Shown here: piece by piece, positions 35,081 through 59,441 of the stretch | How the letters are laid out: each line of letters starts with the position of its first letter | Position numbering within the stretch: the stretch's first letter is position 1 | Assembly: GCA_030704615.1 (NCBI GenBank) | Contig: CM060731.1 | Coordinates: 80,972,001-81,036,000, forward strand | Direction: 5' to 3' | DNA from: Takakia lepidozioides | Taxonomy: Eukaryota > Plantae > Bryophyta | Length of the DNA stretch: 64,000 nt | Translations under genes and position numbers: made by a program | The notes under the pieces: generated by a model | The model's input: only the letters and a program-made list of their open reading frames with translations | The model's database searches: none | Told to the model about the DNA's origin: nothing

Positions 35081-36097
35081 CAATGCTCTTCATGAATTCA
35101 AATTGAAAGTTGCATAAATGAATTCGGTGTCGTCCTAATTGTGTGGATTCATGTGGTGAGAGAACAATTTGAGTGTCATATAAAATGGCATTGCCATGAC
35201 CACGATGAAATGCTATAAAAGAAAAATTGGTGTAATCGATGAAAATGTTCTAGATTAAATTACGATGACGATAATTGGTGTTTCATTCCAAGCACAATAT
35301 GTGAAGCTTGACGTATTCAATCAATATCCATCATATTGATATTGGTTTAGCAAACGAGTATTCAATGTTTGCACGACAAAAAAAAAAATTGCAATATGAA
35401 GGGTATTGACAATTTATGTTGTGTCATTGTTATAAATCGTCTCATGTATTTGGCAACTGACTTATCAACGTTGAAATTTTTTGGTTCGTGTGTGTTCAAA
35501 AGATACAAGTGTTCTTTTTTCCTTATGCTAGATAAAGTTGTGTAAGTTAGACCATGTCTTGTAACACCTTTTAGATCGAAAGCTATAAGCTAACAGGTCT
35601 AAGTGCAGCTTCTGCCTTCTTGAAGTAAAACCTATTATCATGACACTGTTGTCTTCATAGTTGCAAGTTCATTGTTCATTATAGCTAGGCTGTCATGCCA
35701 TAGACATGGGTGCCAATATCGATGCCTACAAAGCACTAATAAGAAGAAGCATCTTTGCGTGGAATACAATGGCGTACTACGTCAATTTGGCAGCTCTGGA
35801 GGAAGTTGTTGCTGATTGCAGGCTTGCAATGCAACAGTTCCCTACCTACACACCAAGCCATGCCCGACCAATGTGCCATCATCGTGTTTGAAGACCTTGC
35901 TACCCGATTGTTTCACTGATTGGTGAAATATCTAACGCTTGAGTGCAACTCTCACAATTGTAGAGATAATCGCTTCCTAATTTAAATTAGGTCTAACAAC
36001 TTCTGCCTTCTTGACGTAAACCTATAATCGAGATTATAACATTGTTGTCTTCATAGTTGGAAGTTCATTGTTCATTGCAGCGAGGCTGTCATGCCAT

Positions 36098-36413
36098 TGT
36101 CAAGTTATTTTACCACTAGTGTGAAACTAGCTAGGAAATAGCTAGCTTTTACATATTGACATTTGGGATTGGCCCAAGTGTCAATCCAGGGGTCAAGGCA
36201 GATTTAGGCCCTGGAGTGGTTATCTTCACGGCAAGCGCGGGAGGCTCATCTTTCTCGAGTTGAGCCTCACCGCCCTAGCTATGGCGCCGTAGTGTGGATT
36301 CCCCATGGCGTGGGGTGCACTTGGCTTGACTTGTATTTGAGTGATGAGGTTATATATGCATGAGTTTATGCTTCAGATTTGTGAGCTCGTGTTTGTATTC
36401 TTCTTCTTTATCA
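36098..36413 (+). repeat. Putative 5' LTR (316 bp, TGTCAAG...TTTATCA)
   Basis: TG/CA termini. It interrupts a local repeat (35985-36097, similar to 35595-35701) right after GCCAT. The near-identical inverted copy at 54322-54638 has the same boundaries. Confidence 0.75.
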
Positions 36414-36429
36414 CTCGAGAAAGATGAGC
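36414..36429 (+). promoter_or_regulatory. Self-priming primer-binding site
   Basis: CTCGAGAAAGATGAGC directly follows the LTR and is the exact reverse complement of 36244-36259 inside the LTR. It lacks the TGG start of tRNA-type PBSs. Confidence 0.7.
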
Positions 36430-37914
36430 TCGTATCTGTGAGTGCCATATACGAGTTAGTTGTAGCACTTGTGGTTTTTGCTTGAGAATGAGAGAAACCA
36501 AGTTATTATGCAAGGAGCACCGTGGAGCTCTTGGTTGTTAGAACGGGCGGAGGCGGTGGGTTACGAGGTGGTAGACCTTGGCATTCAATCTTCAGCTTCA
36601 GAGATGAAAGCACCATGCTGCAGGTAATTCCAGAGCACCTTGATGGTTTCAGATTGTGTACATGCATGAGCAAGCACGATTGGGAAGAGGACCAGTCAAG
36701 AGCAGGTTATAGTGGCTTTGGTGGCAAAGCTGAGAACTGGACTTGGGAATGCGAGCTTTCATTGTGTGAAGGATTGCAAGACCAAGCGAAAGGGCTGATT
36801 TGGCTTGGGGCAAATCAGTGCACTTTGTGGAGTATGGTGAGATTGGGTTTCAATCTCGAGCTTCAGCATTGAGAGGGCTCTTGTCATGGCAAGAGCAGGG
36901 CTGGAACAGGAGCTAAGAGGTGCGGCAAAGGCCATGGAATGTGCACCTAGGGTTTCAGAGCTTGGAAGAAGAGCTCTTGCACCACAAGAGAAGTGTCTTG
37001 TGGCTGGAAATGTAAGCCTTAGGGTTTCAGGAGCTTCGCAAAGGCTGTGGAGTGCTTAGTCTTTGTCTTAGAGAGCATCAAGGAGCCAAGGACCAAGATA
37101 GGGGGCTGATATCTCTTGTGTGAAGAGGTTGCATGTGTGGAGCATGTATTCAGCTCATTGAAGCTTCCATCTTCAAGCTTGGAGGGCAAGTAGGGAAGAG
37201 GGAAGGGCTGACTTCCCTTATGTGAGGCAATGCATGTGTGGAGCATGCTATCAGCCTGGTGAAGGCTTGCATGAAGGGGCTGGTTTCCCTGTAGGGCATG
37301 TGGAGCATGCTTTCAGCCTGCTGAAGCTTGATTTTCAGGTTTGTGGGTGCAAGAAATGAAGCAAAGAGCTGATTCTCTTATGGTGAGAGTGGGGCATGTG
37401 TGGAGCATGTCCAGCCCATTGAGGCTCTTGTTTTCAAGCTTTAGAGAGCTAGAACAGAAGGTCTAGGGCTGGTTTCCACTTGGAGTGAAAAAAAAACACT
37501 TGTAGGGCCTATGTGAGTTGGGGTTTCAACTTCAAGCTTGAAGGGAGCGCAACTCTTGAAGCAGCAGGTGTAGGGGGCTGGAATAGGCTCTAAGACAGAT
37601 GCTATGCCAGGAAAGTGCTTGAATGAGTGCTCACAAGGGCTGGGAACCAGCAGGGCTTGGTTGTTTGCCATTGAGTTTAGTGGCGTGTTTGGGGAGGCTA
37701 AGTGAGAAAGAAGGCTTGGTTTGTGGCAACCACCTCATGGCTTAGGGCTACTATAGTGGTGTGTGGGAGCCGAAAGAGCAAGAATACCTTGCTGATTTCC
37801 TCACAGCCGCCATAGCTCGGTGGAAAGAAGCCTCGAGTCCAAGAGACACAAACCCTAGCTTGGCGTGGCTAAACCCCTTGGAGAAATGGCTAAATTGTTA
37901 GAGCGGCCATGGAT

Positions 37915-38880
37915 GGGGCTGTGACGGGCTGTCCCTGTGGCCTTGGGGGCTGTGATGGGCTGTGCCCGTGGCCTTTAGGGCTGTGATGGGCTGTGAGGGG
38001 CTGTGACAGGCCGTGCCTGAGGCCTTTGGGGCTGTGACGGGCTGTGAGGGGCTGTGACAGGCCGTGCCTGAGGCCTTTGGGGCTGTGACGGGCTGTGAGG
38101 GGCTGTGTCAGGCCGTGCCTGAGGCCTTTGGGGCTGTGAGGGGCTGTGGCGAGCTCTGAGGGGCTGTGACACAGGCTGTGCCCAGTGGCCTGTTGGGGCT
38201 GTGACGGGCTGTGCGGGGCTGTGACACGTTGTGCCCAGTGGCCTGTGGGGCTGTGACGGGCTGTGCGGGGCTGTGACAGGCTGTGCCCAGTGGCCTGTGG
38301 GGCTGTGATGGGCTGTGAGGGGCTGTGACAGGCTGTGCCCATGGCCTTTGGAGCTGTGACGGGCTGTGAGGGGCTGTGACAGGCTGTGCCCAGTGGCCTG
38401 TGGGCTGTGACGTGCTGTGACAGGCGGTGGCGGGCTGTGACAGGCTGTGGCGAGCTGTGATAGATGTGATGGCTGTGATGGGCTTGCGGGCTGTGACAGG
38501 CTGTGCCTTGTGGCCTGTGGGGCTGTGGCGAGCTGTGACGGCTATGAAGAGCTGTGACAGGCTGTGGCGTGATGTGACAGGCTGTGCCTAGTGGCCTGTG
38601 GGGCTGTGAGGGGCTTGACAGGCTGTGCCCTGTGGCGTGTGGGCTGTGACGGCTGTGACAAGCTGAGCCCAGTGGCCTGTGGGCTGTGATGGGCTGTGAG
38701 GGTTGTGGCCTTTGGGGCTGTGACCCTGTGACTTGTATCGGGCTGTGACAGGTTGTGCCCTGTGGCCTATGGGGGCTGTGAGGGGCTGTGACAGGCTGCG
38801 GCCTGTGGGACTGTGACCCTGTGACCTGTGTAGGGGCTGTGACAGGCTGTGGCCTGTGAGTTGTGTGGGCCTGTGCTGGT
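37915..38880. repeat. Satellite of 9-10 bp GGGCTGTGA(C/G/T) units in ~50 bp higher-order repeats, in the element's 5' leader
   Basis: Read directly; e.g. gggctgtgacgggctgtgaggggctgtgacaggccgtgcctgaggcctttg repeats at ~37978-38130. Confidence 0.95.
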
Positions 38881-39591
38881 CTGTGGTGGCCCGTGTTGAC
38901 CTGTGGACGGCCTGTGCTGACTCGTGGTGGCACTGGTGGACTGCCTAAGGACTGGTATGTGGTCTTGAAGGCCGAATTTTGAAGCTTATGGAGGGCGGTT
39001 TGAGGAGTATCTTCATGATATTCCCATGGTCATGCAAGTGAGGGAAAGAGGAGAGGAAGAGTGTTGGGATGAGGGCATGTTGGGGTTAGGCATTGCTTTA
39101 GCTTCTCTCTCCTCGTAGTTTCCACCCTCTCATTAGGCCAAGACCTTTCCGTAGGTGGAGGCAAGAGTCAGTCCGGGTTTGGGCTGGGGTGTCCTTGCAG
39201 GAGCAACACCGTGGAGTTGTTTTTGGTGTGGGGGAGTTGTCGTTCTGATTTCTTGTGTTTGGATCCCCTCCATACCTGCATGCTTGACTGTGCGCCATGC
39301 TAGTTTTGTGTGGGCGTTTGTTTTTATAGGTGATTGGTCCGGATTTGATCACCGGCCAGTCCTAGAGCATGCTGTCGATGTGAGGCTGGGGTGATGACCA
39401 GCCAGACCATCATTGTTTCTCCTGTGGTGAGGTTGGAGTGATGATGACCAGCCAACCATAGGAGTGCTTGCGGTGGATGCAGGTACAGGTGTAGGCTATG
39501 TTAGGAACTTAGTATTCCAAACCATAAACCGCAACAGGTTCTCTACCCGGTTACCTTGTGGAGAGGGGGTTAGGGACATGTTCATGACCGG

Positions 39592-40727
39592 TTGAGTGTC
39601 AACACGGAGGTGCCACTAGTTGCTGGGGACAGTGCCGGTTCGAGCACTAGCGATACTAGTGGGTACACGAGACGAGGTGTGCGGTTTAGGCCACCTTCAC
39701 CTCATGTGTCTTCTACGGAAGGTTCTGATTCGGATTGTGAATCAGGAGGACTCATACCGGCGGTAAAATTGTTTCCTTCCTTGCTATTGTTGTGGGACAC
39801 AATGGAGGAGATGTATGGAGCTACCAAGGGGCCACGAAGGTACTCGGGGCGGTGGGCACCATCGAGTTGGATGATTTTATCCAAGAGTTTGATAGTTGGT
39901 GTGATTTGCAGCAAATACGCAATCCACAACTATTTACGCCTTTCATGGCATGGAAGGGGTTGTTTCAGCACCTTGAGGGGCCGCCTATGGATGATTACCA
40001 TGAGTTCAGGCGGGGGCATGAGGTTGAGATTGAGGAGTGGAGGATGTACTGGTCACCCGACTATGTCTCCATCACTAGGGGCACTAGAGCCACGAGGGAA
40101 GTGGCTACACCTGCCGCTACACACGGCAGCTTCAGCAAGTAGCAGAGGGACTAGTGGGACTGGTGGTACAGTAGCTACGACGTCCACCAAGCCACTACCG
40201 CACCAGCACTAGTACCCGTGCCTGCCTTCACCCTGTTGTGGAGTTCTTCGAAGAGTTGAGAGAAAACTACCAAGGGGTGAGAACGAGAAGTTGCGGAGCT
40301 TGCAAGAGTTCCAACAGAAGCCGACCGAGAGCTTGAGGGAGGCTTTCACTTCACTCGCATGAGGCGCTTGATAAATGTAACCCAAGGGGTTACGGAAGCC
40401 TCAGGCAGTCCATTCTGGTATGGGATATTGGACAAGGAGCTGAGGAGAAGGGTGTGGGATGCAACTCTCCTACAAAGCGGCCCCCCCACCTAGCAAATGT
40501 GTTTTTGCTGGCAAGCGGATAGAGCTCTACATGGTGGAGGAACGAGTGGTCATGGTGGGATTTGCTAGGAGACACCACGGGTATTGGTGCTCCTAGCCAA
40601 CCACTACCTCAACGTGCTCAAGGCAACAAGGGGGCTCAGGTGAAGCTCAGGGAAGGCCGAGAGTAGGACCTCAGATGCAGGGGTCTCTCCCTTCATTTTC
40701 TGGCCAACAACGGGCGGATGTGGTGTG
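39592..40727 (+). pseudogene. gag of the outer element, frameshifted and interrupted at a probable zinc-knuckle start by the nested element
   Basis: MEEMYGATKGPRRYSG / TIELDDFIQEFDSWCD...LFQHLEGPPMDDY / KLRSLQEFQQKPTESLREA...RMRRLI...WYGILDKELRRRV, ending NNGRMWC at the insertion. Confidence 0.65.
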
Positions 40728-41452
40728 TGTCGCGGCCCTTTGCCTTGAGGGCAGGAGGGGTCGGGACACAAGAGGGGCTGCCCATGTGGTGGGGGCAGTA
40801 GCGCGATAGGTACGGGGGCTGAAGCACCCTTGAGTGCCCAAGGCACTCAAGGAGGCGGAGGCGCTCACTAGGTGGAGCCCCGCACACCGGGTTGCGGTGG
40901 GGGTGGCTCCACAAGGGGTGGTGGTAGCTTAGCGGGACTTAGTGGGGGTGGCGTAGGACTCACCATGGGGTGGAGACCTCGTGGTGGGAGTCGTGGGGAG
41001 TCTTGGGACTCATCACGGTCCATGGGGCCGTGGTGAGTGGGCCAAGACTCACCGCGACTCACCACCGGGAGTCGAGGGTCTTCGTGGTGGTTCACCATAA
41101 AATGGCATGGCTGGTTGTGAAACCCCCGCGGACAGCTACAGAAGTATATATAAGGGGAGTAGTAACCCCGAGAACGGTGGAAGCCCGTTGGTGACCAAAA
41201 ACTAGTGAGTAAGCGAGCGAGCCGGAAAGCGACCAAAGAGTGGGGAGCTGTTCCGGACTGCCATCTACCAAAGGGAATTCCACTAGGCCCAAATAGGTGG
41301 AGGGTCTTTCGGGAAGCGAAGGGGGACCGTTATGTCCCGGTGAGCAGCCGAAGCTCCGAGTTGGCCCGGCGGCCAGGTTGGGAGTCAGGCGCGCGCATCA
41401 AAGCGAGTAACTATGACTTGAAGGGGAGCTTACCGAAGTGAGGTGCGCGACA
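40728..41452 (+). repeat. 5' LTR of the nested chromovirus (725 bp)
   Basis: 7 bp terminal inverted repeat, TATATAA at ~41147, direct repeat of 46969-47516. Confidence 0.92.
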
Positions 41453-41454
41453 CT

Positions 41455-41466
41455 TGGTATCAGAGC
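41455..41466 (+). promoter_or_regulatory. PBS complementary to initiator tRNA-Met
   Basis: TGGTATCAGAGC, 2 nt after the LTR end. Confidence 0.93.
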
Positions 41467-41507
41467 TTAGAGTTCAGTACGCGATCGTCCTTGGGATTGG
41501 CCTCATC

Positions 41508-44500
41508 ATGGGGTCGGGCAAGCCGAAGCGAAAGCGGAACGGCCCAAAAGATGATGATCCCGGTGAGCCCGATGGGGGCGACGTGTCACCGAGGCGGCCG
41601 TTTGAGGAAGCGATGCATTTTCCAAAAACGAGGCCGCCCAAGAGCGGGAGGAATCCGAGGAGTCGGAGCCCGAGAAATCCTTGAGAGCTCCGACAAACCA
41701 AGAGATGCCTCCCATGCCGGCAGCCTTTTGGGAAGGGTTGTTGGCGCAGTTTGGTGGGACGTTGAAAGACGTGTTGAAGGCGGCTAATGCCACTTCCGCT
41801 AAGGCAAAGTTTAAGGTGAAGCCTAAGGAACCCGGCACCTTCGAGGGCGTCCAAATCGGAAGGCACTCAACACCTGGCTCTTGGAGCTAGAGCAGTACTT
41901 TCGGGCGGCCAAGTTGAGTGACGAGGATCGGGTGGAAGTGGCTCCCACCTATTTGAGGGGCTATGCTCAACAATGGTGGCAGAAACGCCTTCACGACCGA
42001 GGCCCAAGCCCGGAAACCTTGAACTGGAGTGGGTTCAAGGAATTGATGAAGAGACAGTTTGTGCCCCTCAACGCATCCTGGCTTGCCCGGGACAAGATGA
42101 GGAATTTGAAGCAAACAGATGACATTCGGGGGTATGTCCAGGCTTTCAATGTGCTGTTGCTCGAAGTCGCGGACATGGCAGAACCAGAAATGGTCTTCAA
42201 CTTTGTGGCGGGACTGGCCCCATGGGCCAGGCGGAAGTTGGAGGAGAAGCCACCCAAGACTTTGAACGAGGCAATTGAGAGGGCTGAATGTTTCTCGGAT
42301 GTCCCAAGGGGTGAGAGACAAGGCCGTACGGAGCTGAACCACAAGAAGACCCGGCGGGAAGGTGACTCCTTCCGACCGGAAAAGAAGTGGGATAGGCCAC
42401 GCGGCGACAATGGCACGTGGGAAATCGAAGGGAGGGCCTTCACACGTCAAGGCGGCACCCGGTGCTTCGAAAAGAAAAGCGGGTGGAGCGGCTTATGGCG
42501 GACAGAAGGCGACCTTTGATGGAGTGTGTTTCAATTGCGGGGAGCCCGGGCACATGGCCAAGAAGTGCACGAAGCCCCGACAATTGAACATGACTCGGGC
42601 GACCACGGAGCTGTCGGAAGATACCATCAGTCGCTTGGTGGAAGCGGTGGTCGCCAGAACTTGCAAGGTAGGCAAATTTTCTTGTGAGTTGTATCAGGAA
42701 ACTGGCGCCTTACGAAAATGGAGTCAGTTATTGTTCGTGGATGGGATAATATCCGGAACTAATGTGTCGTTGTTGGTGGACACAGGAGCGTCGCACTCCT
42801 TCATGACACCGGCAACGGCACAAAAGCTTGGACTCCCGACAAGTGACGTGGGGGCCTCTATTGAGGTGCGTTCTGCCAAAGGAGAACCACAGTTGGCGAC
42901 AAGGTTGGCGTTTGATGTTCCTCTTCAACTGGGGAGTTGGGAGGGACGTGAGAACTTCACCATCTGCGAGATCGATGGAGTAGATCTCATTTTGGGGATG
43001 ACCTTTTTGAGCAAATCCGGAGTGGTCATAGATGGCCGCAAGAGAGTAGTCACGCTGCCATGTGGGAATGGTGGCGAGGTCTTACGAGTGTCGGAAACGC
43101 CCAAATCCGTGGGAGGGCGAATAAACCTTCTGTCAGCAAGGGAGTGGGCCGTGGAGGAGGCACACGAACTCCAGTTTTTGCTTTACATTAGAGAAGTGAA
43201 AGGAGAAGGCGATGGGGAGCCGAGCCCAGATTGGATCAAGGGGATCTTGGAGAAATACCAGGATGTGATGCCGGAGGATTTATCAAGCGGCTTGCCACCG
43301 CGAAGAGGAGTTGACCACAAGATTGAGGTGATACCAGGATCGGAACCGCCTGCCAAGGCACCCTACCGGTTGAGCCACAGGGAGTTGGTCGAGCTGAAGA
43401 CTCAGCTCAAGGATCTAATGTCAAAGGGGTACATCCGGCCGAGTAAGTCACCTTACGGAGCCCCGGTGCTATTCGCAGACAAGAAGGATGGGACGCTGCG
43501 GATGTGTGTCGATTACAGGGCTCTGAATAAGGTGACTATCAAAACCGGTACCCTTTGCCAAGGATCGACGACCTCTTCGATCGGTTGGCAGGAGCGAAGT
43601 ATTCAGCGGATCGACTTGCGCTCCGGCTATCGCTATCATCAAATTCGGGTGGCGGAAGGAGATGAGGAGAAGACCGCGTGCAGGACAAGGTATGGTTCAT
43701 ATGAGTTCTTGGTGATGCCTTTTGGGCTCACTAATGCACCGGCGACCTTTAGCACGCTGATGAACAGCCTTTTCAGGAGTGGTTGGATGACTTTGTGATC
43801 GTGTACATCGACGACATCTTGGTGTACTCGAAAACAAAGGAGGAACACCTGGAGCACCTCAAAAGGGTGTTCCAAAAGTTGCGAGAAGGGAAGCTGTATG
43901 CCAAAGCTTCAAAGTGCGAATTCGGGGTCACGAAAGTGGAGTTCTGGGGCATGTGATTACACAGGATGGGATCAAAATGGATGACAGAAAAGTGAGGGCG
44001 ATCTTGGACTGGGAGCCTCCGACTTTGGTCCCGGGAGTGCGATCCTTCCTAGGACTCGCCTCCTATTACCGGAAGTATGTGAGAAATTTTGCCAAGATCG
44101 CGGGGCCGCTGTCGGACCTTCTGTGTAAATCTAAAGTCTGGGCATGGAACACCTTTTGTGGCCAAGCTTTTGCTGAATTGAAGCAGCGGATGGCGGAAGC
44201 TCCAGTCTTGAAATCCCGGAGTTCGATCGTCCGTTTCGAGATACATACAGATGCGTCGGACTTCGCGATTGGGGTGTACTGATGCAAGATGGACGTCCAG
44301 TGGCTTACGAAAGTAAGAAACTGAATGAAGTGGAGCGACGGTGGCCGACGCACGAGAAAGAGATGAAGGCGGTGGTGCCTGTCTTGAGCTCTGGCGCCAC
44401 TATGTTGGTTCCAACCCAGTGAAGGTGTTCGCGGACAATGTCACGGTGAAGTATTTTGCCACGCAGCCCAAGTTGTCCCCAAAACAACTTAGGTGGCAAG

Positions 44501-46065
44501 ATACTTTGGCGTGTTCGACGTGGATATCCAGTACAAACCGGGACGAGACAACGTGGTGGCCGATGCTTTAAGTAGAAAGCAGCAGCTCTTGTTGGTGTAC
44601 AAGGGCGAGACGGCGCTCCAAAGGAAATCCGGAAGGCTTGCCGGAAGGATGAGCTGGCAAGTCCATGATGCAGGACTTGAGGATGGGGGTTAAATCGCAG
44701 TTCCACTTGCAAAATGGACTGCTCCGATATAAGCAAAAACGTCTCTACGTGCCAAAGGGAGGGATCAGAGATAGCCTCTTGAGAGAATGCCATGATAGCC
44801 CGCTTGCGGGCCACGGCGGAGCCAAGCGCACTGCGGCACTCTTGAAGAAAGAGTATTTCTGGCCCAAACTGAGGGAGGAGGCAGAGGAGTATGTCAAGAC
44901 ATGCACCACATGCCAACAAAACCGGAGCGAGTACAAAAAGCAAGCGGGGCTGTTACAACCCTTGCCGATTCCAGAGGGGACTTGGGAAAGCGTCTCGATG
45001 GATTTCATGACTGCTATGCCGCTGTCAAAAGGATTCGATGCAATCATGGTGGTGGTGGATAGGTTCAGTAAAATGGGCCATTTCATCCCCACCAAGGAGA
45101 CGGCAACGGCGCAGGAGACAGGGCGACTTTACTTCGCCCACGTCTTAAAGCATCATGGAGTCCCGAAGGATATTGTCTCGGATCGCGATCCAAAGTTTAC
45201 GAGTAAATTTTGGAGGACACTTTGGAAGAAGATGGGGACGAGGCTGAAGATGAGCACCGCCTTCCGACCTACGACGGACGGCCAAACGGAAAGAGTGAAT
45301 TCCGTAGTGAAGCAATTCTTGCGGAATTACGTGTCGGCAGACCAATCAGACTGGATGGAACACTTAGACGCGGCAGAGTTCTGTTATAATAACACAGAAC
45401 ACTTCGCAACGGGAGTTTCCCCTTTCGTATTGGTCTATGGAAAAGCACCTCTGGTGCCGACAAGTTGGGCCGCCCAGGACGTTGAGGAACCGGCAGTAGC
45501 GGCGGTACTGGAAGAACGCGAAGCGTTTGTTGAAGCTCGCAAAGTACAACATTGCCAAAGCTAGGAAACGGTATGAAAGGCAGGCGAATCGGAAGCGGAG
45601 GGAAGTGAAGTTTGAGGCAGGCACAGAGGTCTGGTTGAACATCAAGAATTTCCGACTACCTCCGGAAGTGAGTCCGAAGTTCGTACCTCCGTATGCGGGA
45701 CCCTTTTGCATTCGGAAGGTTATGAATGAGGATGTGTATGAATTGGAGCTGCCGGCAAACAGCAAGGTGCACCCAGTATTTCATGTCTCCCTTTTGAAGC
45801 CTTACTTCAAAGATGAAGCGCGTCCGAATCGACATCAAGTGTTGCGTCCGCCACCTATGCTGTTGGATCATGAAAATGAACATGAGTACGAGGTGGAGGC
45901 AATACTTAAGTCGAGAGGTTCAAGAACCGAGAAACGGAGTATCTCGTCAAATGGAAGGGCTATCATCATGTGGAGGCATCTTGGGTGCGTGCCTCAGAAA
46001 TGGGAAACGCATCCGAGGCGGTTGCAGCTTTCGAAGGGCGACCTCAAAAGCGGAAGAAACGTTGA
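41508..46065 (+). pseudogene. Chromovirus gag-pol: Gag, CCHC knuckle, protease, RT, RNase H, integrase, GPF motif, chromodomain; several frameshifts
   Basis: [43 protein letters not shown] (~43804), HTDASDFAIG, HDSPLAGHGG...CTTCQ, SMDFM...SDRDPKF...DGQTERVN, YAGPF, EYEVEAIL...EYLVKWKGY..EASWV (~45883-45990). Confidence 0.92.
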
Positions 46066-46968
46066 TGGGGACATCAACCTTGGAGCGTGGGGGAGGAAAT
46101 GCATGCTTAGCCCGGCTTAGCTAGCTTAGGAATCCGATTACAAAAACTTGTATTGTACAAAATTTGTTATAAAGGAAATGGGTTCCAAATGTTGTGCGTC
46201 CTATTTTGTTTGGAATGGTGATGCATGGTATGGTTGGCTAGTGTGTAGAATGCATGCTAGCTTATAAAAGTGGGAGAGGTAAATTGGGTTAATCGTGTGT
46301 TTGCGTAGTGCCGAAATCGGGTGACCCCCATCCAAGGGGCAAGGAAACTTGCGACTTCTTTGGGAGTTCACGTGCTAGTGCGCACCTGGCGCGTGCGCGT
46401 ACTATAACTGCGCTACCGAGGGGGTTGCCTTGTAGTGCGGGCTAACGCGGAAGCTACGTGCTTCCGTTCACGTACTATAATCGTGTAGCCTCGGGACGAA
46501 GTCGTAGTGCGGCTTCGGCGTGTTCCCGTACCTCAGGCCAGCATTCCAAGGCGGACCCAATTGTAGTGATTGGGGCGCACGGTTGGTTCAAGGTTATCTT
46601 CCTAGTCAAAGAGGGTTCCAGGTGACCCTTGCTCAAGGTGATGCCAAAAGCGGCATCATGAGCGGTCGCAAGCAATGTTGTTGCAGTAAGGCGATTCGAT
46701 CCTCAAGGAGGATCGTTCCTTGGCCTTGAAGTAGGCCAAGAAGAGTGCACTGGGAGGAGCTTGAGAGGCTCCACCCTTGGCCGGGACTTGGAGGAAGTCG
46801 GCCGAACTAGCTAGTGGAGAGTAGAGTCAAGTGTGGGGTTTGGTTCTTTGCCATGGGACGCCATGGTACGGAAACAAACTCCTTGATGTGGGACGCCACA
46901 ACTTGGATGTTCGTTTCTACAAAATGGACAAGTCGATGAGGACATCGACTCCCTGTTGGTAGGGTGTG

Positions 46969-47516
46969 TGTCGCGGCCCTTTGCCTTGAGGGCAGGGGGG
47001 TCGGGACACAAGAGGGGCTGCCCATGTGGTGGGGGCAGTAGCAGCGATAGGTACGGGGGCTGAAGCACCCTTGAGTGCCCAAGGCACTCAAGGAGGCGGA
47101 GGCGCTCACTAGGTGGAGCCCCGCACACCGGTTTGCGGTGGGGGTGGCTCCACAAGGGGTGGTGGTAGCTTAGCGGGACTTAGTGGGGGTGGCGTAGGAC
47201 TCACCATGGGTGGGAGACCTCGTGTGGGGAGTCGTGGGGAGTCTTGGGACTCATCACGGCCCATGGGGCCGTGGTGAGTGGGCCAAGACTCACCGCGACT
47301 CACCACCGGGAGTCGAGGGTCTTCGTGGTGGTTCATCATAAAATGGCATGGCTGGTTGTGAAAACCCCGCGGACAGCTACAGAAGTATATATAAGGGGAG
47401 TAGTAACCCCGAGAACGGTGCAAGCCCGTTGTGTCCAAAAACTAGTGAGTGAGCGAGCGAGCCGGAAAGCGACCAAAGAGTGGGGAGCTGTTCCGGACTG
47501 CCATCTACCAAAGGGA
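46969..47516 (+). repeat. 3' LTR of the nested chromovirus, missing its last ~176 bp
   Basis: Matches 40728-41276 and then switches abruptly to outer-element sequence. Confidence 0.9.
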
Positions 47517-48012: not shown

Positions 48013-48400
48013 ATGTTAGACAACCAGGATGGCATTTTCTGTTTGAGTGGACCGGCAGGCAAGATGTACCGGCCCACTGCGGGTCTTGTTAGACTTGGGA
48101 GCTTAGCCACTGATGCTGGGCAAAGCTGCTATTGCAGGCTTGGGCCTCACGGAGGCGGATATGGAGCCTTGTCCTTTCCAGATACTGACGTCTCTGGGAG
48201 GATCGGAGCAGGCTCAGGGCATGACACGGCGTGAGTTGGCTATCAGACTACGGCCGGATCACCCTACAGATGGCTCAGTGATGCGAGCTAAGGCTATTGT
48301 GACAGACGCGGTCTCATACGATATCCTGGTTGGTGGGGCAGTGTTGTACCCCATGGGCTTTACCCTGGATTTTGGGAGGAGTCAGCTTCATATAGGCCTG
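48013..48400 (+). pseudogene. Aspartic protease of the outer element
   Basis: RVLLDLGA*PLMLG at 48080-48121 (degenerate D-S/T-G-A site) and YDILVGGAVL. Confidence 0.7.
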
Positions 48401-48780: not shown

Positions 48781-49780
48781 GTGTGGCAGTATCCGGATGA
48801 AGGCATTTGTCTTCTGGACTTGTTTGGCGGGATCAGCACCGGATTGGCTGCTGTGTTACAGGCAGATGTACGAGATCGGCATTATCTGTATGTGGAGAGG
48901 GATGAGACTGCACGACGCGTTTCACTTCGCCATGTTGCTCAGTTGGTGCAGCGGTACCCTGAGTTGTTGTCGGTGTCTGCAATCGTGGATATCAGCAGGC
49001 CTTGCCAGTAGACATTTTGTTGCTGGGGGCGCAGGATTTGGAACCGGTTGGCTCCATTGATCTGGTAGTGGCAGGTTGGCCCTGCCAAGGGCATTCATCA
49101 GCCGGGCATGGCAATGGATTGCGAGACTCGAGGTCGGGTCTGTTTTGGGAGATGGTGCGGGTTTTGCGCCACTTGCAGCTTCATCAAGCTGTATCTCCAG
49201 CATACATCTTGGAGAATGTGCCACTGATGGGCGATTCTCGGGCCAGGGTGATGGCCAGTGTGCATCAAGTCCGATCGTGGCTTGGGTCAGCAGTGTTGCT
49301 AGATGCAGCTACAGTGGGGTCACGGGCTCATCGTCCACGGCTATGGTGGACTAACTTGATGCCACGCGCACTGCTCAACCGTACATTTGATGGGGTGCAG
49401 CGGCCAGCACATCTCACAGTGGATAGCATTCTGGACACAGGGAGGCAGTCTCAGCGTGTGAGACACGATGACCGTTCGCCTTTGGCAGTGGTCAACAAGG
49501 TGGGTCAACCACGAGCAGCATTACCTACACTGCTCAGCTTCCCAGGATCACATGCTTTCCGGGATAGTGGACTTGGCCTCTTGTGGGATGCTCAGTTGCA
49601 GCAGTTAGTAGAGCCTAATGCTGACGAGCGTGAGCGGGCAATGGGTTTTACCACTGGTACCACGGCGGTGTCGTCTCTTTCTGAGGCATCACGTCGTCAA
49701 GTGTTGGGGCAAGCAATGGATCTCAATTGCTTGACCTGGATTATCAGCTTGGCTCTGGCTGAGCAACGTAGAGTGCGGAA
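48781..49780 (+). pseudogene. C5 cytosine DNA methyltransferase domain (DNMT3-like) inside the retrotransposon pol, with one frameshift at ~48984
   Basis: Motif I LLDLFGGISTG (48811), II YVERD, IV IDLVVAGWPCQGHS (catalytic Cys 49083-85), V SGLFWE, VI YILENV (49212), VII LDAA, VIII HRPRLWWTNL (49329), IX ERERAMGF, X RRQVLGQAM, all in canonical order. Confidence 0.92.
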
Positions 49781-50119
49781 TATACTTCCCTCGATGGTCT
49801 CTCTGCCTACCGAGACGGTACAGGCAGTGAGTGGGGGCGAGCATGTGAGGACCACGGGGTGCATGCATCCATGGCACACGTGGGAGGTGCTCGAGGTTCA
49901 GAGGGAGTTGGCAGCCAAGGCGGCTGTGATGGATGAGGTTGGGGATTCTTCTCGGGTTGAGGAGGTCCTCAAGGATGAGATGATGGGGCAGGATGAGGTC
50001 TTGTCATTGATTGAGCAGGCAGGGAGTACTGCTCAAGAGGTTGCAACATAGCAACCACTGGACGCGTCCTCTACCTCTAAGCCCACTGGACTTAAGGTTG
50101 TAGTTACGGAGGACAATTG

Positions 50120-51520
50120 GGAGCCTGACATTGGACCCATTGTCACCGGAGGAGAGAGACAACGTATATGACGGTTCCTGAGGGCTTACAGGAATTGCTT
50201 TGCCTTCAGTTTGAAGGACTTGGGAGCACTGAAGGGTCAAGAGATCCGTATTGAGTTGGCCACTGACACGCCAATCTTTCGGAGACCCTATAGATACAGT
50301 GACATGGAGAGGTCTTTGATTCAGATGAGGACTCAAGATCTCTGGGAGGCAGGTTTGGTGGAGCTCTCTGGTGGAGAGTATGCTTCAGCCACAGTGATGC
50401 TAGCCAAGAATGATGTCTATGGCAATTGGACGGAGAGACGTATGTGCGGTGATTATCGGCCTGTAAATCGTCAGACCAAGTCCGATAAGTATGCCATGCC
50501 AACACCAGAGGAGATCTTTGATGCCATCGGGCATGCTGAGGTCTTTAGCACTTTGGATTTACGATCCAGATATCACCAGTTGTCAATCAAGGAGGTGGAC
50601 AAGCAGAAGACGACATTCTGGGGGATCAATGAGCACGGAAAGGATTGCCTATATTAGTGGCGGTTCTTACCATTTGGGCTTAAGAATGCTCCTGCAGAGT
50701 TTCAGAGAGTCATGGATAGGATTCTAGCAGGGGTGGACTTTGCTCGGTGCTACATAGATGACATCATCATCTTTAGTGTTACGATGGAGGAGCATGAGAG
50801 ACACCTTCAGGTGGTATTGGAGCGCTTGAGAGCGCACGGATTGAAGTTGCATCCGAGGAAGTGCAAGTTTTTCCACAACCAGATTGAGTATCTGGGTCAC
50901 ATGATATATCCTGGAGGATTGGGGGTACAACAGACTAAGGTAGAGGCCATTGCACAAATTCCACGCCCATGGATGTGAGCCGAGTTCGAGCTTTCATGGG
51001 GTTGGCAAACAGTTTGTCAAGGGATTTAGTATCATTGCAAAGGCTCTAACCAAGCTGACCAAGGTGGACCAGGAGTGGCAGTGGGAAGATGAGCAGGAAC
51101 GAGCTTTTCAAGAGCTCAAGGCGAGGTTGACCTCGGCGCCTATCTTGAGACGACCTATCAGGGGGCGTCCCTTTCAGCTGCATACGGATTGGAGCATGCT
51201 GGGGCTTAGAGCGGTGCTCACACAGGTGGATGATGAGGGAAAAGAGTTCGTAGTGGCTTATGCTAGCCGCTCGAACAACGCTGTAGAGGCTAAGTACAGC
51301 TCATATGAGGGAGAGTGCTTAGATGCAGTGTGGGCCGTGGCACACTTCAGGTGCTATCTATACGGCAATCTTTTCACCCTTGTCACGGATCACCAGCCAC
51401 TCAAGTGGTTGATGTAGTCAGACAAGCTTACGGGGAAGCTTGCACGGTGGGCACTCATATTCCAGGAGTATGACTTTCAGGTTGTGCATCGACCGGGTTT
51501 GGTCAATTGGGATGCGGATG
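50120..51520 (+). pseudogene. Reverse transcriptase and RNase H of the outer element
   Basis: RMCGDYRPVN, FSTLDLRSRYHQ, LPFGLKNAPAEFQR, YIDDIIIFS, LHTDWSMLGL, YASRSNN, YEGECL, TDHQPLKWL. Stops at 50655 and 51415. Confidence 0.92.
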
Positions 51521-51879: not shown

Positions 51880-53178
51880 CGGGTGAGGATTGTGCCTCAC
51901 CCCACACAGCGTGCAGGGTTAGTGCGGCATGCCCATGAGGAGTTGGGGCATTTTGGAGTGCGACGCACTCACAGTTTACTGCAGGGGCAGTATTGGTGGC
52001 GTGGTATGCATACAGAGGTGCAACAGTTCGTGGCTAGGTGCATGGTGTGTGACAGGGTGCGTGCTTCATTCAACGCCCCTACACCACAGTTGCATCATTT
52101 ACCAATCATGGGATTGGGCTACAGGTGGAGTCTTGATTTCGCAGGACCGTTGCCACTGACTATGCGCCACCACAGATATGTGTTGGTGATGGTGGAGCAC
52201 TTCTCCAAGTGGATTGAGTTGGTTCCATTACCTGACAAGGCTAGTGAGGGGGCTGCGTATGCATTCTTGGATTGTGTGCTTAGCCGATTTGGTGCTCCAG
52301 CTGAGGTACTCACGGACCAAGGGAGAGAGTTCTTGGGGGAGTTTCAGGCTTTGTGTGCTAAAGCCTTGATAGACCACCGCACCACTTCTCGGGATCATCC
52401 TCCTGAGGCCGATGGCTTGGCAGAGAGAGTCGTTCAGACGGTGAAGAGGGGTTTGCGCAAGTATGGCTTGCAGAAGGGACACCTAGGAGATTAGGATCTT
52501 CAGGTTCCTTGGTTAGCCATGGGCTACGGGTTCAGCAAACAAGCATCACTTGCCTCCTTCTCACCATATTTCCTTCTCTTTGGTCGAGAGCCGGATTTGC
52601 CTGCAGCCATTCGTAGGGACACTGCTCAAGTCCCTAACCTTGACGATCCGGACGTGTGGGTACGTGCATGCGATCAGCGTGCAGAGTTGTTCAAGAAAGT
52701 CATGCCCATGGCTTTTGAGAACCTTGCCATTGCACAGCACCGTGATACGTTGAGGTATGCCACTATACGTGGTGGAGGATATCGTCTTGGGGTTCGGAGG
52801 TTTAGCCCTGGTGACTATGTTTATTTGCAGCAGACCGCTCCTACGACTCTGGATGTTACTGCAGGGCGTGTTATTCTGAGGGTTCAAGAGGTGTTGCCCT
52901 CAGGAGTCCTGATCTTGGAGGGTCGGGATGGCATGACTTGGAAAGACCATGTGCGTAATTGTGCGCCATGTCACCTTCCCTATGTCGATGGCAGAGTTGA
53001 CCCAAACTTGGCAGTGGTACCTGCAGGTTTGAGGTGCATGCTCTGTGGGTCTACCAAAGGGGCAGCCACCATGCTGGTGTGTGATCGATGCTCAAGGGGT
53101 TGGCATATGGGATGCTTGACACCACCTCTTGAGAAGGTTCCTGACGGAGATTGGTTGTGTCCACACTGCTTGGGATAG
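51880..53178 (+). pseudogene. Integrase (HHCC and DDE) with C-terminal PHD finger (53035-53169)
   Basis: HAHEELGHFG...CMVCD, SLDFAGP, LTDQGREF, DGLAERVV. In-frame stop at 52492. C4HC3 finger CMLC...MLVCDRCSRGWHMGCLTPPLEKVPDGDWLCPHC, then stop. Confidence 0.92.
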
Positions 53179-53430: not shown

Positions 53431-53440
53431 TAGGGGGGCG
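53431..53440 (+). promoter_or_regulatory. Putative polypurine tract of the outer element
   Basis: TAGGGGGGCG followed by AT-TGT, about 250 bp after the PHD stop. Confidence 0.6.
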
Positions 53441-54322
53441 ATTGTGTGGACTAGTGACTGCCATAGTGGGCAGCATAGTGGCAGCCTAGTGACTGACTAG
53501 TTGTAGCCTAGTGGTTGGACTAGTGACTGACTAGTTGTAGCCTAGTGGTTGGACTAGTGGTGAACTAGTGATATACTAGTGTATGGCGTGCACATGTGTT
53601 GTGTGGTTTTGGACAATGATGTAGTTGTGTTTCAAAGTCGTGGAAGTGAACATGATCATGGTTTAGTATGGATTTTCAATTCGTCAATTTTTGAAATATC
53701 AGATAATATTGATATCAAAAAATTATAGACAAATACGTTACATGTGACAATAGCGTGTTGCTTGAAGATATGAAAGATGCACAGCTTCATTGTCATAGAC
53801 GCACTTGAAAAAAATAAAAATAAAAATATTTGCCGGTTCCACTATCCACTTCCTCCCATGAAAAAAACTACCATTGTGCTTCCACTCTTATAACTATCAG
53901 ATGATTCACAACAAATATAAGATTAACAAGTGTACACAAGCGTTGGAGTGCTCATCAATCGGTGAAACAATCATGTAGCATTATCTTCAAGCGGTTGTAC
54001 TTATCGATGATGGCACACTGGTCGGCATGGGTTTCGTGTAGGCTAGGGAACTGTTCGATAGCAAGCTTGCAATCAGCAACGCCTTCCTCCAACGCCCACA
54101 AAGTAGTACTTTGTAGGCGTCGATATAGTCACTTATGTCCATGGTGTCGTGCGCATACATATCGCTACACAACTACATCGTTGTCCAAAACCACACAACA
54201 CATGTGCACGCCACACACTAGTATATCACTAGTTCACCACTAGTCCAGCCACTAGGCTACAACTAGTCAGTCACTAGGCTGCCACTATGCTGCCCACTAT
54301 GGCAGTCACTAGTTCACACAAT
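53441..54322. repeat. Foldback with arms 53441-53630 and 54167-54322 and a ~535 bp spacer
   Basis: The arms are reverse complements apart from a few substitutions and an extra ~34 bp tandem unit in the left arm. CTAG-rich. Confidence 0.9.
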
Positions 54323-54638
54323 GATAAAGAAGAAGAATACAAGCACGAGCTCACAAATCTGAAGCATAAACTCATGCATATATAACCTCATCACTCAAAT
54401 ACAAGTCAAGCCAAGTGCACCCCACGCCATGAGGAATCCACACTACGGCACCATAGCCAAGCGCGGTGAGGCTCAACTCGAGAAAGATGAGCCTCCCGCG
54501 CTTGCCGTGAAGATAACCACTCCAGGGCCTAAATCTGCCTTGACCCCTGGATTGACACTTGGGCCAATCCCAAATGTCAATATGTAAAAGCTAGCTATTT
54601 CCTAGCTAGTTTCACACTAGTGGTAAAATAACTTGACA
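54322..54638 (-). repeat. Inverted copy of LTR 36098-36413
   Basis: Reverse-complement match with a handful of differences. Flanks CACAA and GCTGT are not a target-site duplication. Confidence 0.92.
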
Positions 54639-54639
54639 G

Positions 54640-57600
54640 CTGTCGGTTACAAAAAAAATCAGTCACTTGTCCAAACAAGTCATTTTGTTTAACTAATAGT
54701 TTTCGAAAAGAATTCATTCTATGATTGTAATAATGTGCATAAGTAACAGGGTCGGAATCGAACGAGTTCCGTAATGTCTCCACGTTCTAAATGTTTGATT
54801 TGTTCTGAAGACAATTTTTTCTGGGCTAGCTGACATATTGTATTGATCAAAGATTTCCAATTTGCTTCTGCGTTCGTGAAACTACAAAAAATGTTGGTGG
54901 GCTGAGTTGGCGTATCATAACAAATATATCTTTACGTAATCCTTGCAAATAATGTGGTGATGTTCAGACCTTCTCAAGTTTTCTATATCCTAAGTGAGAT
55001 CATAGTATTGTATCAAGGTTTGATTTATAACTAACTCGCTTTGTTGTTAGTTTACGCCCTTGAAGCTGACCTTTTCTAATTCGAATCTAAGATAATGAAA
55101 GTATAAAATGAATTCTATATAATTGGAATATGACATGCTAATGTGCTGTTATGAAGAGTGAACTCTTGCAATTGCTTGATATGAATAATTTTTTATAATT
55201 TCCCCAGGATGAGAACATGTTCATAAAACAAAGTTGGGAAATTGTATTTTTCACTATTATGATCTCGAAAAAGTCCAAGCGATTATTTTCAAGTGAGACC
55301 TATATTGAGTATTTGAAGCGAGAGTTCAAGTGGGACGAGCCGCTGATCACGTTATAAGGTGCAATCGATCGATGGGTTAGATACTGCATGAAGGTGGGGC
55401 CCAAGGAAAGGGGCTACATGTTTTTCAAAGATATTTTTTCATTTTTAGCCCTTGGTCTGGATCTTCAGCTCTATCCTGATGATTCCTTGAGTTGGCTACA
55501 TGCGGTACTTCTAAGTTCAGCAAAGAGCTACAAAAGCGTTTGCCGAACTGCTCCACGCTACGACACTTGGAGCGATTGCATAAGTATTACGTTCATGATC
55601 AAATATTTGTTCAACATCAATGAATTATCTACGAATGTGTCTGTGGGAGTATTCTCATGTATTTCTTCCAAAAAATCATTAGTATTTTGGTCTTTAACAT
55701 CGTCTATGATTGTTTGGAAATCCTCAGACAATTCAAACATATTTTTCTAATTTCTTCTTATCAAAACATTGACAAGTTGATATAATGGAATTCCACAGAA
55801 ATCATGTAATGCTTTGCTAAGAAGACGAAAATGTCCGAGGTCCCTGGGAATCCTTTAAATATGTATTAATACTCTGGTGGTAGAATCCGGGAGTTTTGCA
55901 GAGGTGAAGATGTTCTGAAGATCCGGGTTAGAGGCAATATACGTGCAGTTGCTGAGGGCAGCGATGCGCTGAATTTACTGGGAGGTTATGGAGGTGCTTC
56001 TGTTGGACAAGTGGATAGCATTTGTCGACACTATGTGATAGATCCAAGGAATCATGATCACTATAATTTGATGGACTAATGGAATTTAGTGGTTGATTCC
56101 GCCTATGTATTGTAGGCATTTGAGGCTCGATGCAGCCTTCAGGAGTTCAATAGTGTTTTGAACTGGGCGAGGGCAGTTGGTGGACCTTTCTATGGATGGG
56201 CGTTCAAGTACTACGTTCACAAGTTAGCTACGTCCGCTGATGGTTTTTCTATTAAGGTTAGAAAGTTTGGGGAGTGCTGTTGATACTGATCCTGGAGAGA
56301 AGTATGAGATCATTGGTGGGAAAGTGACTCATGAAGGCGTTAATGAATTGCAGTGCAATACTTTTCTTTGCACTTGGTCTGCTAGTTTTGAATCAAGGTA
56401 CTGGTATCCCAAATATTCGCAATTTCCTTGTATAGACTGTATTGCTAAGTGTGTGAAAATTATCTCGGATGGACAAGATGGCTTGAAGAGAGTGGAGATT
56501 TTAGCATATATTCAGATTATTGTTGGTGATAGTCACACTCTGGATGGAGATAAGTTGAACGAGTTGGATGCGACATTTAGCAATGATCGTAAGGATAGAG
56601 CGTACATTGCCGTCCGACGTCCTTGAAAAGTTGGAGCGGACGTGCTATGTAGACTAACTGACACTTATCGTTCTGCTGCCGTTCTCCGATATGTTGGGCA
56701 TCTCAATGTTAAATGGCTTTTGAGAGGTTAGGAAGCTGGTTAGACTTCGATCATCAGATTTCGCTCCTTGCAGAAGGAGGTGAGATTTTATCCATCAGAT
56801 TTCTTTCTTTCGTTATTGTTGCTTCATCTTGGGAAAGACGTAGGATTAAATACAATTAAGAAAGTAAGTTCTATAAAGAATTCAATTTCCGCACAATTCA
56901 GTCTAGCCAGAAATAAGGAAAATAATAAATACTCTGTTTTTTTTAAAAATTCTAAAAAATTCAGCGCCATTAACTTCTTCTATCTACACCGCAGCAGAAG
57001 CAATCTGAATTACTTAAAACTGAAATCGAAAAGATTGTAACTCCGGGACATACAGCATGGAGGAGTGGCAATTTATTCTAGGGGTGATGTGTCACCACCC
57101 TTGGAATTCAGCGCCATTAATCTGGATTACTTAAAACTGAAATCGAAAAGAGTATAACTCCGAGACATGGAACATGCAGGCGTGACAATTTATTCCAAGG
57201 GTGGTCACTCACCACCCTTGGAATAAATTGTCACTCCTCCATGCTCCATGTCCGTGATCAACTGGATAAAAGGAAACATTGACTCATTAGCCCACACGTA
57301 AAATTCGACCTCAGCCTAATACAATCCCCTCCACGACAACTTCTTTATTTCCACCCCTAATATTGCACCAACGCCGAAGAGAGATTTAAAGAGCTTCAAA
57401 GATAGCACTAAATCATTCTTGGCAATGACAATAAATTCAGCATTGGTGAATCTCATTTTAAATTGCGTCCCACTTGCATCGTGTTGTCATCTTCTTGAAT
57501 TTCTCGGTATACTCGTCTTTGTGCTGTAACTCATAGGTGTCCTCACCCCTGCACAACATTTCAACAATGCTCAACATTAGTTGTAGTTTCTACTAGAATT

Positions 57601-59378: not shown

Positions 59379-59380
<2 letters not shown>

Positions 59381-59439: not shown

Positions 59440-59441
<2 letters not shown>

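Follow-up and report, generated by a model that had tools for sequence, protein, structure and literature searches.

Ty3/gypsy retrotransposons that encode a DNA methyltransferase are known from the alga Klebsormidium nitens, where KnitGypsy-Dnmt3 was reported to have 'the same repeat structure as DIRS' (PMC5890265). Other retrotransposons carry chromatin readers. Chromoviruses (Tcn1, Chlamyvir, Galadriel, Tekay, Reina, CRM) have one at the integrase C-terminus (PMC6317226), and PHD fingers are known in retrotransposons generally (PMC6673714, PMC8557442, bioRxiv 2021.11.30.470311). Insertion of Gypsy-7a_cRei, a PHD-bearing element of Chlamydomonas reinhardtii, is intergenic 2.6 times as often as expected by chance (bioRxiv 2022.06.16.496473). 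Here, we analysed a 64,000-nucleotide stretch of contig CM060731.1 of the bryophyte Takakia lepidozioides, referred to as the window. It contains a broken Ty3/gypsy copy that is kin to KnitGypsy-Dnmt3 (Gypsy-DNMT3) and belongs to a known family.

The element shows the Ty3/gypsy order of protease (PR), reverse transcriptase (RT), RNase H (RH) and integrase (INT, with a DDE core), to which a DNMT3-like cytosine methyltransferase (DNMT) and a terminal PHD finger are added. PHD and DNMT3 domains were each already known in retrotransposons, and the PHD finding alone is therefore modest; new beyond the known family are a conserved stop after the DNMT and the anatomy of the element ends. As a whole, we lean slightly towards a reading in which the PHD finger tethers the integrase, the DNMT acts as a separate product on the element's own cDNA and insertion proceeds from a circle. 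The window copy itself is dead. It is split by a nested element, its 3′ end is inverted, and it carries several stops as well as frameshifts near 48985, near 50965 and in the 47.5-48.4 kb region. Two of the stops (51415-51417 and 52492-52494) break the frame of RNase H, integrase and PHD, and the second of these is not shared by contigs of other copies. Copies of the family were examined through run contigs and metagenome loci; P-numbers denote relative proteins, L-numbers metagenome loci, and X1, X2 and X5 sequencing runs with assembled contigs.

The PHD finger at the integrase C-terminus

A preliminary description of the locus, made from its letters alone, had proposed that an intact C4HC3 PHD finger ends the pol frame. 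The PF00628 profile that it suggested as a check matches residues 181-225 (53035-53169) with an E value of 2.9e-11 and 43.6 bits, against a cut-off of 24. Eight of eight zinc ligands are kept, and the finger shares its frame with RNase H and the integrase core. The open reading frame (ORF) at 52495-53178 (+) ends ...RCMLC...MLVCDRCSRGWHMGCLTPPLEKVPDGDWLCPHCLG-stop, leaving two residues between the complete finger and the stop. Searching with the INT-PHD part as query returned 252 proteins of 1303-3720 amino acids, the best 120 of which were listed. Among these long relatives, phmmer found a PHD in 118 and a DNMT in 105 of 120, and the 118 carry integrase and finger in single intact ORFs, as had been foreseen for intact copies. 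Since the PHD was part of the query, this count is biased. As an unbiased check, loci were collected by integrase motifs only, and the best 80 of 466 metagenome loci were inspected. A PHD follows the integrase in 74 of the 80, and the remaining six are cut by a contig end just past the integrase. Co-occurrence of PHD and methyltransferase in further copies, likewise anticipated, was seen in 35 of these 80 loci.

To place the finger among known readers, it was compared with solved structures. Its sequence matched 76 of them; the top single fingers were KDM5B PHD1, KDM5A PHD1 and ATXR5, followed by DPF, BHC80, BAZ2A/B and UHRF1, and ING, BPTF and TAF3 were absent among the best 60. The fold predicted from a 50-sequence alignment has a predicted local distance difference test score (pLDDT) of about 90 across the finger, with a root-mean-square deviation of 1.2 Å to ATXR5 and 1.1 Å to BAZ2A; a prediction from the single sequence reached a pLDDT of only 33. 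In KDM5B PHD1, L325, P347, G349 and W351 hold A1 of histone H3 and D328 holds R2 (PMC4225485). All five positions are present in the window finger. Among the 213 parsable PHDs of 240 relatives, the aspartate is found in 204, the proline in 191, the glycine in 183 and the tryptophan in 195 (with phenylalanine in a further 18). In H3K4me3-reading PHDs such as those of ING, BPTF and TAF3, a tryptophan two residues before the zinc histidine forms the K4me3 cage. This tryptophan has no counterpart in the window finger or in any of the 213 relatives; the position is a glycine in the window and in 203 of the 213. By sequence and predicted fold, the window PHD is thus of the class that reads unmodified H3 tails, in line with the likeness to BAZ2/KDM5-PHD1-type fingers noted earlier. 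In 173 of 213 PHDs, a methionine is conserved three residues ahead of the third cysteine.

The median ratio of nonsynonymous to synonymous change (dN/dS) between copies was 0.235 for the PHD; the integrase core gave 0.20, RT 0.18 and the DNMT 0.34, in pairs that are not independent, restricted to pS 0.25-0.65 and taken with chlorophyte-type loci left out. We consider it more probable than not that the finger serves as a tether to H3 tails.

The DNMT3-like domain and the stop that follows it

A C5-methyltransferase domain (PF00145, E 1e-12) lies upstream of the PHD in the same element. The gag side and the PR-DNMT side can be assigned to one element since a Marchantia gene model, MARPO_0020s0163, matches the gag region before the nested insertion and 47500-49889 after it (tblastn). 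The closest solved relatives of the domain are DNMT3A/B (DNMT3A, E 2e-8), with DRM2 far weaker. It is unpermuted, and the catalytic motifs PC, ENV and RxR are kept in the window. Among the DNMT domains of relatives, the catalytic cysteine is retained in 96 of 105 and the combination of C, E and RxR in 92 of 105, EC often replacing PC. In many family members, GWEC replaces the usual PC before the catalytic cysteine (motif IV). About ten DNMTs lack the catalytic motifs while their PHD is intact. A volvocalean subclade combines decayed DNMT motifs with an intact PHD (P0012, P0013, P0018, P0027, P0028, P0040, which is Chlamydomonas CHLRE_09g398141v5, P0049, P0065 and P0098).

The position of the DNMT differs between lineages. 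In the best 120 relatives, it lies in the interval between RNase H and integrase in 91 full chlorophyte-type cases, where it adjoins the integrase, and before RT in five proteins as in the window; 15 PHD-bearing relatives have no DNMT, which corresponds to six changes on the RT tree, at least five of them forced. The RT and DNMT trees, the latter built from every third chlorophyte-type row, both split the two domain orders (support 99 and 95); without host DNMT3 or a reference gypsy outgroup, they fit one or two DNMT captures.

In the window subfamily, an in-frame TAG stands at the same place between DNMT and RT in the window, L001, L006/L061 (99% identical, counted as one locus), L053, L056, L060 and L072. 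The window reads TAG CAA CCA here and L001 reads TAG CAG TTA, both of which match UAG_CARYYA, a readthrough signal of plant viruses (PMC4132726); four further loci read TAG CAA CCY. DNMT and RT share one frame across the stop, and in P0008, P0010 and P0091 the same region is a single ORF. Many DNMT proteins in the database terminate close to the stop, and RT-INT-PHD proteins start there, under a length filter that favours split forms. In this subfamily, the DNMT closes ORF1 before the stop and the PHD closes ORF2; RT, RNase H, integrase and the conserved stop lie between reader and methyltransferase, which by sequence layout are not fused. In L074, which is Klebsormidium-like, TGA CGG, a further readthrough-type context according to PMC4132726, stands right after the DNMT, in this one locus.

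It is therefore likely, as judged from the reading frames, that the DNMT is a separate product in the window subfamily, and we infer that Gag-PR-DNMT would be abundant and RT-IN-PHD rare. Such a ratio would suit DNMT action on cDNA, and self-methylation of cDNA has been proposed for DIRS-DNMT3 (PMC5890265). We find it somewhat more plausible than the opposite that the DNMT acts on cDNA, apart from the PHD. CpG depletion, taken as a possible trace of such methylation and measured in NCG codons, gave a mixed picture: it is stronger in the outer element (44/291) than in the nested one (65/205; p 1.5e-5), but across loci it does not go with the DNMT (see below). Of the earlier proposal that one retroelement unites a histone reader and a DNA-methylation writer, the presence of both domains in the same element stands; the copy is broken, and a stop conserved in the subfamily separates the DNMT from RT-INT-PHD. 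A conserved and presumably leaky stop suggests that DNMT is produced in amounts like those of the capsid, which bears on what retrotransposon DNMTs act on.

Element ends, proposed cycle and alternatives

The element is bordered by two repeats, A and B, in an unusual order. Repeat B1 starts after the polypurine tract (PPT) at 53442, and A2 (minus strand, 54322-54638) is joined to a copy of B. Read on the minus strand, the 3′ block runs B-end, GC, A2, B2, CCAT. The same four bases close the left flank, and a paralogue of the empty site lies at about 35700. The original layout is thus A-coding-PPT-B-GC-A-B, altered by a local inversion (53631-54645) in which the right flank was turned round along with B2 and A2 and about 20 bp of the B1 end were lost. 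The uninverted joint is seen in contigs of run X5. Depth over A is about double that of the adjoining internal stretch, and in 21 contigs of X2 and three of X5 the loose end in front of A consists of B-end plus GC. The A-coding-B-A-B layout is present in the window, with the inversion allowed for, and uninverted in the complete copies L028, L049, L061 and L069. Two other interpretations, in which A is a separate solo long terminal repeat (LTR) and a terminal inverted repeat forms the right end, were dropped in view of the CCAT duplication, the loose contig ends and the uninverted loci, which show a local inversion.

Target duplications of 4 bp flank all five complete copies, four exactly and one with a transition. 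The tetramers at 13 sites showed no motif, and a central CG in 0 of 13. The spacer between B1 and A2 is two bases long in 17 of 17 hand-picked loci (GC in 8, GT in 4, AC in 4, AT in 1), while the joint between A2 and B2 varies by a few bases among copies within a subfamily. Of the 74 PHD-bearing loci, 13 (10 distinct, 4 of these chlorophyte-type) contain an exact GACAGCTGTC palindrome. All of its occurrences lie in the 380 kb downstream of the PHD and none in the 426 kb upstream, and as an internal palindrome it is conserved in both lineages. Two other palindromes of equal composition occur in more loci (44 and 18). The stretch right after A1 is complementary to the middle of A over 17, 17, 14 and 12 nucleotides in four copies, with different letters; in these four of the five complete copies (window, L049, L061 and L069) it is longer than in all 118 control windows.

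Since the PPT adjoins B and the primer-like stretch adjoins the end of A, ordinary priming is expected to yield B-GC-A at both ends, and we infer that B-GC-A is the LTR unit, with the PPT before it and the primer site after it. We think it more likely than not that the element integrates from a two-LTR circle that is cut inside the LTR unit. Foamy-virus integrase, for comparison, cuts palindromic two-LTR junctions (PMC1180852). The two-LTR circle is usually seen as a dead end; if the proposal is true, it would be a distinct route for a DDE integrase. The end anatomy would then also explain why tools that seek two whole LTRs could miss a high-copy family.

The cycle that we propose would run as follows. 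The RNA would start in the middle of A1, and reverse transcription would be self-primed on the complementary stretch after A1. Gag-PR-DNMT would be made in bulk and RT-RH-IN-PHD through readthrough of the UAG, giving a particle with far more DNMT than IN-PHD, and the DNMT3-like domain would methylate the element's own cDNA. This cDNA would carry the LTR unit B-GC-A at both ends, which would be joined into a two-LTR circle with a variable A|B joint. The integrase would cut the internal palindrome GACA-GC-TGTC of one LTR, losing the two middle bases, and insertion with a 4-bp duplication would produce the permutation A-coding-B-GC-A-B, from which transcription from A1 into A2 would restore the LTR unit. 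On target nucleosomes, the PHD would bind A1-R2 of H3, probably favouring unmethylated K4, the part played by the chromodomain in chromoviruses.

Several observations weigh against parts of this reading. A loop that is acidic in 155 of 213 relatives is neutral to basic in the window subfamily, and the position of KDM5B D308 carries no acid in the window finger, whereas 120 of 213 relatives have one in this stretch; K4 selectivity could therefore be weak. Reading of K4 would still be possible, since ATXR5 does so through backbone carbonyls (PMC5499861). The full CARYYA match is limited to the window and L001, the other five loci having five of six bases or a translation only, and no such stop is found in a second subfamily (L010, L012, L018, L029, L054 and L064) or in P0008, P0010 and P0091. 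CpG depletion does not track the DNMT, being present in L030, which lacks one, and absent in L074, which has one, and KnitGypsy-Dnmt3 is reported to have given no methylation in yeast (PMC5890265). The self-priming signature of L028 is only 9 nucleotides long, and 4 of 118 controls are as long. The window copy lies in flanks of low depth, outside any dense repeat block.

The preliminary description drew a parallel with ADD plus methyltransferase. In a coupled module of this kind, the PHD would recruit the DNMT to H3K4me0 chromatin, like the ADD domain of DNMT3A, and the new insertion and its target would be methylated there. Both domains do occur together in most of the long relatives and in 35 of 80 loci, the catalytic residues are kept in 92 of 105 DNMTs, the RT and DNMT trees split alike, and the chlorophyte-type order (91/120) would allow a DNMT-IN-PHD product. 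The parallel is weakened by the repeated loss of the DNMT (15/120, at least five forced changes), its two positions, the roughly ten DNMTs that lost their catalytic motifs beside an intact PHD, and, in the window subfamily, the RT, RNase H and conserved stop that lie between the two domains. The anatomy of the ADD domain also includes a GATA finger; in the Pfam scan, the window finger is a plain C4HC3 PHD, and no such GATA finger accompanies it. We therefore regard such a module as improbable, and reader-writer coupling in the window subfamily as unlikely. Alternatively, the nucleosomes bound by the finger could be those of the cDNA circle that the element itself forms in the nucleus, or the finger could hold the integrase on chromatin generally, in either case without choice of target. 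Retroviral nuclear circles carry nucleosomes, and the end layout implies a ligated nuclear intermediate; the target tetramers of the 13 sites are motif-less, and K4-reading residues vary among subfamilies while those for A1 and R2 are constant. The chance of this seems low to us, as the integrase C-terminus is the place of known targeting domains (PMC6673714).

The finger could also be an appendix with a structural role in the integrase, or one that binds a protein other than a histone. We think this very unlikely: in KDM5B and ATXR5, H3 A1 and R2 are held at the same five surface positions that are conserved here. PHD fingers with non-histone partners exist, and the methionine kept in 173 of 213 PHDs is left unexplained by a K4me0 model. 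The PHD of ATXR5 also contacts its own SET domain (PMC5499861). The element ends, for their part, could arise without a circle if template switches copied the internal B-GC-A junction, comparable to the internal complementary regions of DIRS, and the linear DNA already ended in TGTC and GACA. DIRS-class elements share the layout (PMC5890265). This alternative has the further merit that it retains the usual integrase substrate. Such substrates are linear DNA with two-base overhangs. The PPT adjoins B rather than A, however, and the primer-like stretch adjoins the end of A; moreover, the A2|B2 joint is variable while the B1|A2 spacer has two bases in all 17 hand-picked loci. We hold template switching to be possible but doubtful, and retain the circle route as the reading that we favour.

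The family and its relation to known systems

The coordinates of the element and its parts are collected in Table 1.

Table 1. Features of the outer element and of its nested insertion in the window
Feature	Position	Strand	Basis or remark
Target-site duplication, left, CCAT	36094..36097	+	Empty-site paralogue at ~35690-35720
Repeat A1, 316 bp, left end of element, starts TGTC	36098..36413	+	311/317 identical to A2
Putative self-priming-type primer site	36413..36429	+	17 nt complementary to 36244-36260 in A1
Long 5′ non-coding region (3.2 kb), tandem array at 37914-38885	36430..39600	+	Repeats; depth high over 36430-37880
gag region, broken	39619..40721	+	tblastn with Marchantia MARPO_0020s0163
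Nested second Ty3/gypsy element, chromovirus-like, splitting outer ORF1	40722..47516	+	LTR identity 97.5% over 556 bp
Aspartic protease region, frameshifted	48074..48388	+	tblastn with P0010, P0091
DNMT3-like C5 cytosine methyltransferase; PC, ENV, RxR motifs; frameshift near 48985	48802..49770	+	
Conserved in-frame stop TAG CAA CCA between DNMT and RT, readthrough-type context	50049..50057	+	UAG_CARYYA motif, PMC4132726
Reverse transcriptase; premature stops, terminal frameshift	50172..50969	+	
RNase H	51007..51500	+	
Integrase: HHCC, DDE core (52135, 52315, 52423), long helix, SH3-like C-terminal β domain	51900..52990	+	
C4HC3 PHD finger closing the frame	53035..53178	+	
Polypurine tract	53431..53441	+	Same place before B in other loci
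Repeat B1, shortened at inversion breakpoint	53442..53630	+	
Right flank of insertion, inverted along with B2-A2; minus-strand start CCAT = right target-site duplication	53631..54144	-	Low depth
Repeat B2, 177 bp, true right end of element, ends GACA	54145..54321	-	64 contigs with diverse loose ends at 54145
Repeat A2 (98% copy of A1, 54322-54638) and preceding palindromic junction GACA-GC-TGTC (54635-54644)	54322..54644	-	

Relatives with integrase and PHD were found in Tetrabaena, Haematococcus, Pleodorina, Chlamydomonas, Monoraphidium and Scenedesmus, and further in Marchantia (78% identity), Calypogeia and Klebsormidium nitens; DNMT relatives were found in Sphagnum, Marchantia and Calypogeia. 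The family is thus far wider than the single alga of the 2018 report. A search of viral contigs gave 0 loci. The K. nitens protein KFL_015960010 (integrase and PHD) has about 53% identity to the C-terminal part of the window element (E 6.6e-100). It is 92.7% identical over 315 amino acids to L074, a locus with the order DNMT-RT-RH-INT-PHD, and the K. nitens Gypsy-DNMT3 family therefore very probably, to judge from this match, already has a PHD. Contig depths in run X1 add up to 0.6-1.4 million over 47520-53519, against 80-240 in the flanks. The rise in summed depth, from about 80-100 to about 1e6, falls exactly at 36098. This shows that the family, DNMT and PHD both included, is very abundant, summed depth not being a copy number. 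Copies in Marchantia and Chlamydomonas, for which chromatin maps exist, make PHD-guided targeting and self-methylation of cDNA testable.

Chlorophyte-type proteins (P0011, P0017, P0047, P0063, P0104 and others) share a tail of 100-400 amino acids after the PHD, 109 of 110 tails being linked. The tail comprises a small β-rich domain and a methyltransferase-like part, with weak MethyltransfD12 matches (E ~0.003) in P0047 and P0063. If the match is real, DNMT, PHD and an adenine-methyltransferase-like domain would occur together, as in EpiLTRs with a chromodomain. P0025, P0037, P0050 and P0053 have a G-patch domain between DNMT and integrase. Several annotated bryophyte genes for a 'DNA methyltransferase' or 'PHD' are pieces of this element, which is a warning for annotation; Marchantia and Sphagnum models of this kind, labelled hypothetical, PHD or DNA methyltransferase, are P0123, P0131, P0247, P0249, P0251, P0258, P0268, P0279, P0281, P0293 and P0300.

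The nested element encodes gag, PR, RT, RH, INT and SH3_Tf2-1 (Pfam). It has a tRNA-Met-type primer site, TGGTATCAGAGC, at about 41455 and a 3′ LTR that is apparently cut short; a chromodomain-like start (YEVEAIL) near 45900 did not receive Pfam confirmation. Neighbours of the outer element are CASP-domain exons (26288-28539), a Replitron HUH fragment (29474-29911) and a transposon-type Myb/SANT ORF (59365-60264). The window also contains arrays of decayed repeats of about 300 bp at 1.6-6.3 kb and 12.5-14 kb, the second inverted, which by eye resemble PLS-type PPR motifs, and a low-complexity region (32177-34300), A-rich and then C-rich, of possibly poor sequence quality.

In the literature, the text and three supplements of PMC5890265 (Figure 4c lying outside this check) do not mention a PHD, and the parts consulted of PMC6317226 and PMC12344493 do not describe this clade with one; bioRxiv 2026.09.17.752431 held nothing relevant to the clade. 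A literature search that left aside most subscription papers, Repbase reports and theses returned no account of a PHD plus DNMT3 gypsy element in bryophytes, nor of circle integration by such elements. Tentatively, and with less than even confidence, we propose an old green-plant Ty3/gypsy clade, reaching from chlorophytes to bryophytes, in which the ligated two-LTR circle, cut at the palindrome inside the LTR, would be the normal substrate, a Gag-level DNMT3 would pre-methylate it, and the PHD-tipped integrase would steer it to nucleosomes with free H3 tails unmethylated at K4, so that the element would already be marked on arrival.

Among the described systems, KnitGypsy-Dnmt3 shares with the window element the Ty3/gypsy type, the unpermuted DNMT3-like domain and the DIRS-like repeat layout (PMC5890265). 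In that report, the family is known from K. nitens only, the DNMT is assigned to the Pol ORF, and how the ends arise is not explained. Here, in contrast, the family is followed through bryophytes and chlorophytes, with two DNMT positions, the conserved stop after the DNMT, the target-site duplications and the conserved junction palindrome. DIRS and Ngaro elements use a tyrosine recombinase and have no DDE integrase, whereas the window family has an rve integrase and 4-bp duplications. Phygy in REXdb is described with NCGN targets and a short internal non-coding part (PMC6317226); the window family has a central CG in 0 of 13 targets and a 5′ region of 3.2 kb. Gypsy-7a_cRei (bioRxiv 10.1101/2022.06.16.496473) and, as reported, REM1 of Chlamydomonas reinhardtii are likewise gypsy elements with a PHD proposed to steer insertion, a likeness by description. 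Gypsy-7a_cRei has ordinary LTRs, and in its figure legend the PHD stands before the integrase and no DNMT is given; REM1 is reported with a truncated, reversed integrase. EpiLTRs likewise unite a reader and a DNA-methylation writer in one LTR retrotransposon, in their case DAM, a DNMT4-related DNMT and a chromodomain, and were set apart from Gypsy-DNMT3 by their own authors (bioRxiv 10.64898/2026.05.21.726589).

Compared with chromoviruses, the window element has a PHD in place of the chromodomain, split repeats in place of two whole LTRs and an added DNMT. No Chromo domain match was found in the window ORF or the 14 relatives scanned, and an intact relative has 26-36% identity to the nested chromovirus-like element and 41-51% to the outer element. 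Self-priming is predicted for Tcn1 elements (PMC6317226); in Tf1/Tcn1-type self-priming, the primer site is complementary to a stretch of the 5′ repeat, and the same signature is found in four of the five complete copies here. With the PHDs of KDM5A/B (PHD1), ATXR5, BAZ2A/B and UHRF1, the window finger shares sequence, predicted fold and A1/R2 contact residues; it differs in having no acid at the position that binds K4 in KDM5B and in having a methionine at the start of strand β1. The integrase of prototype foamy virus likewise cleaves a conserved palindrome in circular DNA (PMC1180852). There, the LTR-LTR junction itself forms the palindrome. In the window family, by contrast, the palindrome is internal to the proposed LTR unit, and the inserted copy would retain the joint between the two ends.

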